Positions 12,365 to 17,101 of a stretch of DNA of 24,000 bases are shown here, one piece after another. Each line of letters begins with the position of its first letter. Position 1 is the first letter of the stretch. Under the pieces are notes generated by a model. It ran no database searches, was not told the origin of the DNA, and saw only the letters and a list, made by a program, of their open reading frames with translations. This stretch comes from an uncultured Clostridia bacterium. Its GTDB lineage: Bacteria; Bacillota; Clostridia; Lachnospirales; Cellulosilyticaceae. The stretch covers positions 1,126-25,125 of the forward strand of contig CALJNR010000005.1 of the NCBI GenBank assembly GCA_937981575.1, given 5' to 3'. Both the position numbers and the translations under genes were made by a program.

Positions 12365-12563
12365 AGGAGCAATTGAGGAGCTCGAAAAGATTGTAACGGA
12401 TTTAGAAGAGGGGGATATTTCGCTTGAAGACAGTATCAAAAGCTATAAGCAAGGTATCGATCTTGCAGCTTACTGCCTGTCCATTTTGAAAAAAGCAGAA
12501 CAAGAGATTTATGTTTATGAAGAAGAATCCTACAAAAAAGCAGAAGGAGACGACTGGGAGTGA
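12336..12563 (+). CDS. xseB: Exodeoxyribonuclease VII small subunit
   Basis: ATG 12336 follows AAGGAGAG. The product MAKKVQKSFEGAIEELEKIVTDLEEGDISLEDSI... is a typical XseB. It overlaps the xseA 3' end by 29 nt; the 14 codons upstream in the ORF track are probably not translated. Confidence 0.9.
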   Translation: MAKKVQKSFEGAIEELEKIVTDLEEGDISLEDSIKSYKQGIDLAAYCLSILKKAEQEIYVYEEESYKKAEGDDWE

Positions 12564-13435
12564 AAGCAGATATAAAAAAATACCAGGACTTAATCAACGC
12601 TCGCCTGGAAACTGCACTGCCCATACAGCCAGGTTATTTTAAGACATTGTATGAGGCTATGAATTACAGCCTGCGGGCAGGAGGGAAACGAATTAGGCCT
12701 ATTCTTATGCAGCTTGCTTATGAAGCAGTTGGAGGAAGTGAGGATATTTCAGCTTACTTATGTGCTATTGAGATGGTTCATACGTATTCCCTGATTCACG
12801 ATGATCTTCCATCTATGGACAATGACGACCTTCGAAGAGGCAAACCTACAAATCATATGGTTTTTGGTGAAGCAGCAGCCATTTTGGCGGGGGACGGTCT
12901 TTTAAACCAGGCTTTTGAAAGTATGCTTGAGGATGCTATGAAACATGGGGGAATCGAACGGGTTCATGCTGCATACATATTAGCTAGAGCAGGAGGCATA
13001 AAAGGCATGATAGCTGGGCAAATTCTAGATATTGAAAGTGAAAATAAAACAATCAGCCTCCAAGCACTGGAAACGATCCATCTGCATAAAACCGGTGCGC
13101 TTATTAAGGCTGCACTTAAAATGGGAAGTGTATTAGGACGAGGAACGCCAAATGAGGTGCATGCTTTAGAAACATACGGAGAACATATCGGCAAAGTATT
13201 TCAGATTATAGATGATGTTTTGGATGAAGTCTCTACAGATCAGGAACTTGGCAAGCGCATAAAGAGTGATCAGAAAAACAAAAAAAACACCTATCTTAGT
13301 TTTTATACGGTAGACGAGTGTTATCAAATAGCTAAAGAACTTACGGATAAAGCGCTCAGTGCATTAGTCATGTTAAAGGGTGATACCGCCCTGCTTAGGG
13401 GCATTGCCGTTGATCTTATAAATCGCAGAAGCTAA
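12560..13435 (+). CDS. ispA: (2E,6E)-farnesyl/geranyl diphosphate synthase (polyprenyl synthetase family)
   Basis: First Asp-rich motif LIHDDLPSMDNDDLRRG and second motif QIIDDVLD. The GTG start overlaps the xseB stop (GTGA). Confidence 0.93.
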   Translation: MKADIKKYQDLINARLETALPIQPGYFKTLYEAMNYSLRAGGKRIRPILMQLAYEAVGGSEDISAYLCAIEMVHTYSLIHDDLPSMDNDDLRRGKPTNHMVFGEAAAILAGDGLLNQAFESMLEDAMKHGGIERVHAAYILARAGGIKGMIAGQILDIESENKTISLQALETIHLHKTGALIKAALKMGSVLGRGTPNEVHALETYGEHIGKVFQIIDDVLDEVSTDQELGKRIKSDQKNKKNTYLSFYTVDECYQIAKELTDKALSALVMLKGDTALLRGIAVDLINRRS

Positions 13436-13446
13436 AGGGGGATACC

Positions 13447-13896
13447 ATGAATTACATTAAGCAGCTTTCAAACAATCATATTTTATGGGTAGCTATTTTC
13501 AGCTGGTTTATAGCACAATTTTTAAAAGTGATTGTTACGCTCTTTTATGAGCATAAACTCGACTTAAAAAAATTTTTTGCCTCAGGAGGCATGCCAAGTT
13601 CGCATAGTTCGTTTGTTACGGCCCTGGCTATTGGGATAGGACAGGTATATGGATATGATAATGTTTTGTTTGCCATAGCTGCAGTTTTTAGTTTTATTGT
13701 TATGTACGATGCGGCCAACGTAAGACTCCATGCGGGCAAACAAGCAGCTAGAATCAACCAGATTATTGCTGTATTAGAAGATCCTACGCTTAATCCGGAA
13801 GAAAGACTAAAAGAAATATTAGGACATACACCCTTTCAGGTTATGGCTGGAGGGATACTTGGCATACTCATAGCGTTCATTTTTTTTGCAGGGTAA
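13447..13896 (+). CDS. Divergent PAP2-family membrane protein (YuiD-like, acid phosphatase/vanadium haloperoxidase-related)
   Basis: 149-aa polytopic protein with GGMPSSHSS and YDAANVRLHAG motifs, which I recognise as the divergent PAP2 family. RBS AGGGGGA upstream. Confidence 0.8.
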   Translation: MNYIKQLSNNHILWVAIFSWFIAQFLKVIVTLFYEHKLDLKKFFASGGMPSSHSSFVTALAIGIGQVYGYDNVLFAIAAVFSFIVMYDAANVRLHAGKQAARINQIIAVLEDPTLNPEERLKEILGHTPFQVMAGGILGILIAFIFFAG

Positions 13897-13901
13897 TACA
13901 G

Positions 13902-13930
13902 TTGAAAAAGCAAGACTTAACTGCTATAAT
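13902..13930 (+). promoter_or_regulatory. Near-consensus sigma-A promoter with extended -10, driving the large ncRNA and the membrane-protein gene
   Basis: TTGAAA (13902-13907), 17-nt spacer ending in TGc (13922-13924), TATAAT (13925-13930). The predicted TSS is near 13937, a few nt before the RNA's terminal helix. Confidence 0.6.
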
Positions 13931-13936
13931 GTGTTA

Positions 13937-14572
13937 AAAGCGACTTATGACGTGCTTTTCAAAAAGTAAGATGCAGTATTCTAGTCAAGATATTATGTTT
14001 TGAAGACGGGCCTAAAAATCCGTTTTAGGGCATATCGATGAAGTTCCTGGTGTTGGCTTGTAACGCCCCGTTATGGGCTGATACTGGGGGTTAAGGTTTA
14101 AGGGCGATCCATAAGGGCATATGGGCGTTGACCCTTTTACCGTGGAGACCTATGATTGTGCTTATTCCTATGGGAATAATGTATGACTTAGGATTAAACC
14201 TACCATGCGGTATAGGCTGTGGGTAGTGTAGCCTGCCTTGAGTGAAGGCGGGGGGACATCAATTTACTGATAAGTTTTTCGGCCAAAAAACCTGTCGGAT
14301 TGTTGATAGAAACCTGATTCGCAAAAGAGGATAGGAGCATAATATATTGCCCGAGGAAAACTCCTAGACTGTTCAGTTTGAGATAGAATATGGATTACAG
14401 TGTGGCTAAAGGCGATCTGGCGTAGATGATGGTAACACATCTAAAACAGAGTTAAAGGGAAACCGCTCTTTTGGCGACAAAAGGGTCTATGTTTGGGAAA
14501 ACCTGCTAGACTATATACCACAAAATTTACGTATTCTATTGTCTTAATTTTTGAAAAGCGGGTGATAAGTCG
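13937..14572 (+). ncRNA. ole: Large structured noncoding RNA, candidate OLE (ornate, large, extremophilic) RNA
   Basis: The 703-bp gap has no ORF of 60 aa or more on either strand. It has its own promoter and many local hairpins. A 25-nt terminal helix pairs 13941-13965 with 14548-14572. The length (~630 nt) and the ispA-RNA-membrane protein-dxs context match the published OLE locus as I recall it. Not verified against the OLE consensus. Confidence 0.7.
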
Positions 14573-14599
14573 ATCACAAAGGAGTAATGATAAGTCATT

Positions 14600-15163
14600 A
14601 TGCATAAAAGAGTGAAGTTTAAAAAAGTTAAGATAAGAAAACAGTCTATAAGAACTTTAAGTATCATTATTTTGACCACTTTTTTTATTGCAATGATGTT
14701 CAGTTACATTTTCGAAGTACTTTTGGGAGATGTTCCGCTGCTTGCAGCGTTTTTTATGCTGATTGTTATTATACTTATAGGCATATTGTTTGACGGTATT
14801 GGTAATGCAGTTGTTTCAGCAGATGAAACGACCTTTCATTCTATGGCTGCTCAAAAAGTAAAAGGAGCTAAGGAAAGCATTATGCTTATTAGAAATGCAC
14901 CTATGGTTGCGAATTTATTTAATGATGTAATAGGGGATATAGCAGGGATTATATCAGGAAGTACAGCTGCTGCTATTATATTAGCACTTAATCCTAAAAC
15001 AGTACTTTTTTCGATTGTAATGAGCGGGTTTGTTGCAGCACTTACAGTCGGAGGAAAAGCTATAGGCAAAGGATTTGCAATTGAGAGGTCACGCTACATT
15101 GTTTATTATGTAGGAGTTTTTATCTATTACATGAAACGATTATTACGGAAAAATAAAAACTAA
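14600..15163 (+). CDS. oapA: Small polytopic membrane protein, candidate OLE-associated protein A
   Basis: 187 aa with a basic N-terminus (MHKRVKFKKVKIRKQ) and at least four hydrophobic helices. The conserved-looking DxxxD (NDVIGD, D109/D113, nt 14924-14938) lies at the start of a glycine-rich helix. The gene is immediately downstream of the structured RNA and upstream of dxs, as described for oapA. Confidence 0.7.
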   Translation: MHKRVKFKKVKIRKQSIRTLSIIILTTFFIAMMFSYIFEVLLGDVPLLAAFFMLIVIILIGILFDGIGNAVVSADETTFHSMAAQKVKGAKESIMLIRNAPMVANLFNDVIGDIAGIISGSTAAAIILALNPKTVLFSIVMSGFVAALTVGGKAIGKGFAIERSRYIVYYVGVFIYYMKRLLRKNKN

Positions 15164-15164
15164 G

Positions 15165-15194
15165 ATGACAATCCCTTATGATTGTCATTTTTTA
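15165..15194 (+). terminator. Rho-independent terminator after the membrane-protein gene
   Basis: 9-bp stem ATGACAATC (15165-15173) / GATTGTCAT (15180-15188), loop CCTTAT, then TTTTTT at 15189-15194. Confidence 0.85.
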
Positions 15195-15226
15195 AATCAG
15201 TAGATTTTGCAGAAAGAGGAACTTAT

Positions 15227-17101
15227 ATGTTAGATATGTTAAAGGCCATTCATGCTCCGGAAGATGTTAAAAAACTTAAACCTTATGATTTGAAAAAACT
15301 CTCTAAGGCTGTAAGAAGGTTTTTAGTTCAGTCTTTGTCTAAAACAGGAGGGCATTTAGCTTCAAATTTGGGGGTAGTAGAACTTACCATTGCACTCCAC
15401 TATGTTTTTGATCTGCCTCAGGATAAAATCATATGGGATGTAGGACATCAAGCCTATGTTCATAAGCTCTTAACAGGAAGACGAAGGGACTTTAAGACAC
15501 TAAGGAAGCTAGATGGATTAAGCGGCTTTCCGAAGAGGAAAGAAAGTGTTTATGATGCATTTGAAACAGGACATAGCTCAACCTCGATTTCAGCTGCGTT
15601 AGGCATGGCAGCAGCAAGAGACTTGAAGGGGGAAGACCACAAGGTTATTGCAGTAATAGGAGACGGGGCATTAACTGGGGGGATGGCTTTTGAAGCATTA
15701 AACCATGCTGGCCGGGGGCATACCAATATTATTGTCGTTCTTAATGACAATGAAATGTCTATTTCTAAAAATGTCGGCGGATTATGCAAATACCTCAACA
15801 AGCTGAGATCCAGCAAAGATTATCTTAGAGTTAAAGAGGACATTGAAGGGGTGCTTGAAAAAGTTCCAGTTGTTGGAAAAGGGATGGTAAGCATTATTAA
15901 GCGCACAAAAGAAGGTTTTAAAAGCCTGCTTATACAAAATACATTATTTGAACAGTTAGGGTTTACTTATTTAGGCCCGGTAGACGGGCACGCTTATAAT
16001 GAACTCATCGATATTTTTGAAAATGCCAAAGAGATGAAAGGGCCTGTACTCATTCATGTTAAAACCAAAAAGGGGAAAGGGTATCTCCTTGCTGAGCAAA
16101 ATCCCAGTCTTTTTCATGGGATTGCCCCATTTGATATTGCAACAGGGGCTGTTTCAAAGCAACATGAAAGAGAAACATTTTCATCAGCTTTTGGTCAGGC
16201 AATGTGCGAATTAGCTTTAACTGAAAAAAATATAGTAGCAATATCAGCGGCTATGCCGGAGGGCACAGGGCTGCTGGAATTTGCCCGCGCTTTTCCTAAG
16301 CAGTTTTTTGATGTTGGCATTGCTGAGCAGCATGCTGTAACATTTGCTGCAGGCCTTGCATCACAAGGCTATAGGCCAGTTGCAGCCATTTACTCATCTT
16401 TTCTGCAAAGAGCTTATGATCAGATTTTGCATGATGTATGTCTTCAAAATCTTCCTGTTATTTTTGCCATCGACCGAGCTGGGCTAGTGGGGGAAGATGG
16501 AGCTACCCATCAAGGGATTTTTGACATAGCCTATTTGAGCAGTATGCCTAATATACAGATCTTAGCGCCTAAAGTACCGGAAGAAATGCCAATGGCTTTA
16601 AATTATGCAGTTACTCAAAATGGACCGGTAGCTATCCGCTATCCAAGGGGTACACTGCAAATGGACGAAAAATACCATAATAATTACTTAGATCCTCATT
16701 TTAAAACTTTAAAGCAAGGTAAGGATATAGCATTACTTGCAGCAGGGCGAATGGTAGAGGCAGCTTTCAGTGTCAGAGAAAAATTGATTCAGGATAATTT
16801 CAAACCAGCAGTTATTGAAGCGCCACGTGTTTATCCTCTGGATGAAACAGCTTTACAGGATATTGCTGGGCAGTATACCTATATTTTTACATTGGAAGAT
16901 GGCATTGCTGCGGGAGGCTTTGGTGAAAAGATATTTGCGTATCTCACAAATCATCATCATATTCCGCTTGGCCATTCATTCGCCTATCAAAACGGGGTTA
17001 TTGAACATGGGGATATAGAGAGCCTGCAGGAAAGAGAAGGCCTTTCAGCAGATAAAATCTACAGGCGGATTCTTACAATACTTCAGAAAGAGAGCAGTTA
17101 A
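15227..17101 (+). CDS. dxs: 1-deoxy-D-xylulose-5-phosphate synthase
   Basis: ATG 15227 lies 6 nt after GAGGA. The N-terminus MLDMLKAIHAPEDVKKL is typical of Dxs. Also present are GHSSTSISAALGMA and the TPP-binding motif GDGALTGGMAFEALN. The ORF-track start at 15182 sits inside the upstream terminator. Confidence 0.95.
   Translation: MLDMLKAIHAPEDVKKLKPYDLKKLSKAVRRFLVQSLSKTGGHLASNLGVVELTIALHYVFDLPQDKIIWDVGHQAYVHKLLTGRRRDFKTLRKLDGLSGFPKRKESVYDAFETGHSSTSISAALGMAAARDLKGEDHKVIAVIGDGALTGGMAFEALNHAGRGHTNIIVVLNDNEMSISKNVGGLCKYLNKLRSSKDYLRVKEDIEGVLEKVPVVGKGMVSIIKRTKEGFKSLLIQNTLFEQLGFTYLGPVDGHAYNELIDIFENAKEMKGPVLIHVKTKKGKGYLLAEQNPSLFHGIAPFDIATGAVSKQHERETFSSAFGQAMCELALTEKNIVAISAAMPEGTGLLEFARAFPKQFFDVGIAEQHAVTFAAGLASQGYRPVAAIYSSFLQRAYDQILHDVCLQNLPVIFAIDRAGLVGEDGATHQGIFDIAYLSSMPNIQILAPKVPEEMPMALNYAVTQNGPVAIRYPRGTLQMDEKYHNNYLDPHFKTLKQGKDIALLAAGRMVEAAFSVREKLIQDNFKPAVIEAPRVYPLDETALQDIAGQYTYIFTLEDGIAAGGFGEKIFAYLTNHHHIPLGHSFAYQNGVIEHGDIESLQEREGLSADKIYRRILTILQKESS

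Follow-up and report, generated by a model that had tools for sequence, protein, structure and literature searches.

The two ends of the OLE RNA encoded in our window, the whole 24-kb stretch of DNA that was analysed, are joined by a helix that is very probably stem P1 of OLE RNA, elongated in this bacterial family to about 30 pairs over 33 positions, carrying an invariant G.G mismatch and closing domain 2 of the RNA. The helix is OLE P1, a known element of a well-studied RNA family, rediscovered here in a long version that is specific to the lineage. The new points are minor: a P1 of about 30 pairs, roughly three times the usual length, with a constant G.G mismatch in the relatives of Cellulosilyticum, and the finding that Rfam hits under-call the ends of OLE RNA. 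Among OLE RNAs, P1 ranges from 6-7 pairs to about 30, and the Cellulosilyticum family stands at the long extreme. Domain 2, P1 included, is not resolved by cryo-EM, and a naturally rigid long P1 might suit structural constructs better.

The RNA and its genomic neighbourhood

The Rfam model of OLE (ornate, large, extremophilic) RNA, RF01071, matches the + strand of the window at 13952..14561, over model positions 1-616 of 616, with a score of 466.5 bits (E 3.5e-134; the gathering score is 50). This is the only copy of OLE RNA in the genome. The gene order around it is ispA-like, DUF212, ole, oapA-like, dxs. A polyprenyl synthetase gene (12560-13435) and a gene for a DUF212/divergent PAP2 protein (13447-13896) lie upstream of ole, and a 187-aa ORF (14600..15163, + strand) follows it, with dxs (15182-17101) downstream of that ORF. 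In 115 of 133 OLE loci, a homologue of the 187-aa ORF, at 33-82% identity, comes immediately downstream of OLE in the same orientation. Directly downstream of OLE is also where the accessible text of PMC12265935 places oapA, the gene for OLE-associated membrane protein A. The 187-aa protein matches no family in Pfam or NCBIfam, so the name oapA, which we presume for this ORF, rests on synteny and on the accessible part of the same paper (PMC12265935).

A sigma-A promoter of ole is predicted on the + strand at 13902..13930, composed of a -35 element TTGAAA (13902-13907), a 17-nt spacer and an extended -10 element TGcTATAAT (13922-13930). This predicted promoter agrees with the consensus at 11 of 12 positions, has TG upstream of the -10 element, and keeps its TATAAT at the same place in most family loci. 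Transcription is predicted to start near A13937, and the 5′ arm of the end-closing helix begins 3-5 nt later. No terminator-like site was found between the helix and the 187-aa ORF (14572-14600). The locus thus runs from the predicted promoter to P1, RNA, P1 again and the oapA ribosome-binding site with no terminator-like site, an arrangement that makes the separation of OLE from the oapA message directly testable.

Between GGAG, which ends at 14584, and the ATG at 14600 lie 15 nt, a long distance for a start codon in Bacillota. Another ATG, at 14587, is out of frame and begins a reading frame of 6 codons; the true oapA start may merit a check. One genome of the family, represented by locus L014 (G010:C78:23145-23253), matches the OLE model over no more than 109 nt, at model positions 463-572 and with 59.8 bits. 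This match corresponds to the P12-P15 region alone and could be a remnant, a mini-form or an assembly break.

A long helix joins the ends of the RNA

The 5′ arm of the helix occupies 13941..13973 and pairs with a 3′ arm at 14540..14572, both on the + strand. The conserved sequence GCAGUAUUCUAGUCA starts one nucleotide after the end of the 5′ arm. About 10 nt separate the start of the 3′ arm from the conserved AAAAUUUAC motif before it, and 5 nt separate its end from AAAGGAG (14578-14584), the ribosome-binding site that serves the next gene. Along the 5′ arm we distinguish an outer segment (13941-13948), a mismatch-containing segment (13949-13953), a middle segment (13954-13965) and an inner segment (13967-13973).

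The initial annotation described a terminal helix of 25 nt. The complementarity it reported is exact both for CGACTTAT (13941-13948) with ATAAGTCG (14565-14572) and for GCTTTTCAAAAA (13954-13965) with TTTTTGAAAAGC (14548-14559). Between these segments it proposed A-U, C-G and U.G pairs in a part of 5×5 nt; these pairs can form, but the part is better described as interrupted by two G.G mismatches. The 25-nt helix itself exists, but its extent was understated, as the helix reaches 33 positions and 30 pairs. Counted pair by pair, 13941-13973 / 14540-14572 comprises 27 Watson-Crick pairs, 3 G-U pairs and 3 mismatches, the last being G13949.G14564, G13952.G14561 and G13966.A14547.

A search for inverted repeats returned arms at 13941-13971 and 14542-14572, which are 31 nt long, 87% complementary and separated by 570 nt; two G-U pairs at the inner end extend the helix from there to 13973/14540. 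The second-best inverted repeat inside 2.5 kb measures 22 nt at 73%. The duplex of the arm with its partner has an energy of -37.9 kcal/mol, and the best of about 9,500 other 40-nt windows, drawn from both strands of the 24-kb window, reaches -23.0 (z = -10.3 for the true partner against these windows). The minimum free energy (MFE) and centroid folds of 13937-14580 both retain the helix. Chance complementarity of the two ends is excluded by the duplex energies and the repeat search.

Match to OLE stem P1

In published figures of OLE RNA, P1 is presumably drawn as the stem that closes the 5′ and 3′ ends. That P1 pairs both termini rests on the topology given in the accessible portions of the texts, on the figures as we take them to be drawn, and on the comparative test. 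Domain 2 of OLE consists of P1, P2 and P10-P15 in the accessible text of PMC12265935. For the OLE RNA of H. halodurans, the accessible text of PMC3413148 places the 5′ strand of P1 at the 5′ end of the RNA, beside the start site of the proximal promoter. The helix in the window shares its setting with OLE stem P1 (RF01071; Puerta-Fernandez et al. 2006; Wallace et al. 2012, PMC3413148; Breaker et al. 2025, PMC12265935), in that it lies inside the full-length OLE RNA; it would also adjoin the start predicted for the proximal promoter. Its 5′ strand likewise stands directly before GCAGUAUUCUAGUCA and its 3′ strand after the 3′ strand of P12. The accessible portions of four further papers (PMC7936274, PMC9723947, PMC12054373 and PMC11332333) hold no text relevant to P1.

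The Rfam model does not annotate this stem. In RF01071, positions 1-53 and 596-616, that is the first 53 and the last 21, are unpaired; the ends of its consensus, 5′ ...agaaaaaGUGGUGCAG and 3′ ...AcCAcuuuuuuuu, are visibly complementary to each other. Because RF01071 annotates no P1, the Rfam match stops 11 nt inside each arm, and because the outer 11 positions per arm fall outside the match, the true RNA is longer on both sides. Automated Rfam hits to OLE therefore under-call the ends of the RNA, here by at least 11 nt per side.

To compare P1 across Bacillota we gathered 145 loci, consisting of the relatives and family of the window plus the results of a pattern scan of one genome per species. 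P1 covaries among these loci and keeps the same register: at least 6 of the 7 in-register core pairs are present in 116 of 118 distinct OLE loci. The 5′ segment ends 0-1 nt before GCAG, and the 3′ segment starts 9-10 nt after UUUAC. The core changes by lineage with its pairing retained. It is GGUGGYG/CRCCACC in most loci and AGGUUG/CAACCU in Syntrophomonadaceae, and other loci carry GACGGUG/UACCGUC, GGAGGCG/CGCCUCC or AAUGACG/CGUCAUU. The window, like the rest of the Cellulosilyticum-relative family, has AAGAUG/UGUCUU instead of the core seen in most OLE P1 stems. Pairing also continues outside the core, where 6.2 of the next 10 nt are paired with the locus's own partner, as opposed to 4.3 of 10 with the partners of other loci, and the contiguous run is 3.3 with the own partner and 0.7 with the others. 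This own-partner advantage was equalled in 0 of 2000 permutations.

The helix in the window departs from other P1 stems chiefly in length. When duplex folding is given flanks of 60-90 nt, the helices run too far and enter promoter DNA, so that any length beyond about 35 pairs is an artefact; a strict in-register count was added for this reason. By this count, which ends early at internal mismatches (giving 5 pairs for L004-L006, for example), the uninterrupted run in the 99 non-family loci has a median of 9 pairs (IQR 7-10.5, maximum 16), whereas in the window 20 of the 21 positions leading up to the mismatch region are paired, and 30 of 33 over the whole helix. It also has the G.G mismatch that is invariant in the family, and its outer 11 positions per arm reach beyond the Rfam match. 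The claim that the helix ties the 5′ end of the RNA to its 3′ end and delimits the RNA thus holds, as the pairing is conserved and covaries across OLE loci, but what it describes is the known P1 and not a new element.

In L075, L082, L087, L116 and L124, a near-identical terminator hairpin, GCTGATAG...CTATCAGC with a T-run, comes right after the 3′ arm of P1. These loci belong to distant taxa, among them Alkaliphilus, a Tissierellaceae MAG and Clostridium thermobutyricum. Typical OLE motifs were also seen on contigs labelled Muribaculaceae, Desulfovibrionaceae, Actinomycetota, Varibaculum and Fibrobacter (L059, L070, L115, L116, L128). As these labels lie outside the Bacillota, the contigs are probably mis-binned or mislabelled.

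Covariation among relatives of Cellulosilyticum

Covariation of the arms in related loci, the check that the initial annotation had put forward, was found within the family as well as Bacillota-wide. The family alignment, A1, draws its 19 loci from three genera and has a mean column identity of 84%; 34 pairs were assessed in it. Of all cells in these pairs, 88.2% are paired, compared with 41-53% when the 3′ partner is slid by 1-3 columns, a control that retains the kinship of the sequences. Both sides have changed in 10 of the 34 pairs. Examples are 13942/14571 (GC, AU, GU), 13943/14570 (AU, GC), 13954/14559 (AU, GU, GC) and 13968/14545 (AU, GC). The covariation score of A1 was matched by 0 of 500 shuffles, a test of the kind that sequence kinship inflates. 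Covariation extends to the outer segment of P1, beyond the Rfam match, just as it does to the remaining segments.

Possible roles in RNA stability and processing

The 5′ stem-loops of the Bacillus ermC and aprE leaders place a duplex near the 5′ end of the transcript and thereby block RNase J1/RppH-dependent decay. P1 resembles these stabilising stem-loops in that its duplex begins a few nucleotides from the predicted 5′ end. It differs from them in the distance of about 600 nt between its strands, by which the same helix buries the 3′ end too. P1 would pair the first nucleotides of the transcript with the last ones and in this way close domain 2, acting as a structural clamp that may set the ends of the mature OLE RNA. 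With both termini buried in duplex, the RNA would be shielded from 5′ and 3′ exonucleases, and this could add to the stability of OLE. Exceptional stability and a single northern band are described for OLE RNA in the accessible text of PMC3413148.

It is tempting to speculate further that a P1 of about 30 pairs is also a substrate for RNase III, whose cleavage would release OLE from the ole-oapA co-transcript; we regard this as possible, though on the doubtful side. A stronger version, in which the long P1 serves mainly as a cleavage site that excises OLE from the ole-oapA transcript and the G.G mismatch positions or limits cleavage, appears unlikely. It draws on the length of the stem, since about 30 pairs (two helical turns or more) suffice for RNase III and the 7-12 pairs of most P1 stems do not, as well as on the lack of a terminator-like site between OLE and oapA. 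It also has precedents, as RNase III of B. subtilis cuts the precursors of scRNA and rRNA in their terminal stems. Such processing stems (rRNA stalks and the B. subtilis scRNA/SRP RNA precursor) share with P1 a long duplex that flanks a stable, abundant ncRNA co-transcribed with its neighbours. However, most of a processing stem is lost on maturation, whereas drawings of the mature OLE RNA include P1, and cleavage of P1 here is putative.

The enzyme itself gives evidence in both directions. A search of the window's assembly, which is 92.7% complete, with the PF14622 profile gave no match, and so no canonical RNase III (rnc) was detected there, which counts against cleavage by this enzyme. The PF00636 profile found in the same assembly only a mini-III-like frame of 147 aa, on contig C77. 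All four relatives that were searched possess both a canonical RNase III frame of 244-263 aa, which counts in favour of cleavage, and a frame of about 150 aa; the missing canonical enzyme is probably an assembly gap. A terminator-like site after OLE is found in 0 of 21 family loci, but it is lacking also in 82 of 99 other loci, that is, in most of the OLE loci with a short P1. P1 length and terminator absence thus show no specific association, and the groups are related by descent. Because terminators are commonly absent among the non-family loci, the long-P1 lineage is not singled out, and the length of its P1 is not explained by a special need for processing.

A constant G.G mismatch

The closing stem P1 contains in G13949.G14564 a mismatch that does not vary within the family. 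G13949 (+ strand) lies between a U-A pair on the outside and A-U and C-G pairs on the inside. At the corresponding column pair of A1, 29/669, all 19 sequences have G.G. The neighbouring pair 28/670 is constant in 18 of 19 sequences, and pairs 30/668 and 31/667 in 19 of 19. Members of the genus Cellulosilyticum have UGAUGA on both arms (A1 columns 26-31 with 667-672), a quasi-palindrome with two G.G mismatches. This segment may be a protein or nuclease site.

A kink-turn consists of a three-nucleotide bulge followed by tandem sheared G.A pairs that fit the flanking helices. The UGAUGA and CUGA strings were compared by hand with this kink-turn or box C/D-like arrangement, and the in-register model has G.G and not G.A. 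The kink-turn was rejected because GA/GA pairing would shift the register by 1-2 nt and destroy the covarying outer helix.

The threefold lengthening of P1 and the G.G within UGA/UGA could together form a lineage-specific functional module that goes beyond mere extra stability. Such a module might be a site at which a nuclease, RNase III or another, cuts OLE free of the oapA message, or else a symmetric site where a dimeric partner docks or where the RNAs of an OLE dimer exchange arms. We hold this proposal only tentatively and think it rather unlikely. Its second half taken alone, a platform for protein binding or dimerisation in which the constant UGA/UGA and G.G make a symmetric site for a dimeric partner or for arm exchange between OLE RNAs, is improbable. 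The pattern of constancy agrees with it: the G.G is invariant and its flanking pairs nearly so, and the pairs further out and further in covary. According to PMC12265935 and PMC12286853, OLE RNAs form dimers, and the same appears to hold for domain 2, of which P1 is a part; sites of OapA are described as palindromic in PMC12265935. Against the platform, the motif is missing from OLE RNAs outside the family. Moreover, the A1 sequences are closely related (84% mean column identity), and the constancy of the G.G may therefore be shared ancestry.

A proposed folding switch and a proposed DNA-level repeat

The initial annotation also proposed a co-transcriptional folding switch, a regulated change in which the 3′ arm, once transcribed, takes over from an earlier hairpin of AAAAGC (13936-13941) with GCTTTT (13954-13959). 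The six bases are present and exactly complementary, giving a candidate hairpin at 13936..13959 (+ strand) with a 12-nt loop, and 78.9% of the hairpin cells pair in the family alignment. The rest of the evidence did not bear the switch out. The hairpin has an energy of -3.7 kcal/mol when the transcript starts at 13936, -2.8 at 13937 and -1.9 at 13938, compared with -37.9 for P1, and it is not the MFE fold of either the first 40 or the first 64 nt. In A1 it contains no pair in which both sides have changed, and whichever measure is taken, shuffled data do as well as the real alignment. Depending on the hairpin pair, 4 to 9 of the 19 relatives have it broken. Since the predicted start site falls within the 5′ half of the hairpin, that half may be transcribed incompletely, and the conservation of the 3′ half follows from its membership of P1. 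The 5′ arm of any long-range helix is transiently free, here during a wait of about 600 nt, and this alone does not make a switch. We judge the hairpin not functional and a regulated switch very improbable.

That the arms are instead a DNA-level inverted repeat, the terminal repeats of a mobile or inserted MITE-like module, has next to no probability: an imperfect inverted repeat of 31 nt does bracket about 570 bp, but the 5′ arm is single-copy in the 3.56-Mb assembly, the helix stands at the same place with other sequences in the OLE RNAs of distant Bacillota, and the A1 cells hold 69 G-U against 6 A-C, an imbalance that arises only when selection acts on the + strand RNA. In keeping with the P1 helix acting as RNA, + strand pairing is better than - strand pairing in every A1 sequence.

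The sequence TGATAAGTC is present twice, at 14563-14571 and at 14588-14596. The second of these, immediately upstream of the oapA ATG, is able to pair with GACTTAT in the 5′ arm as well. In alignment A1 the relatives L004-L009 lack this copy at the matching place, and so it looks genome-specific.
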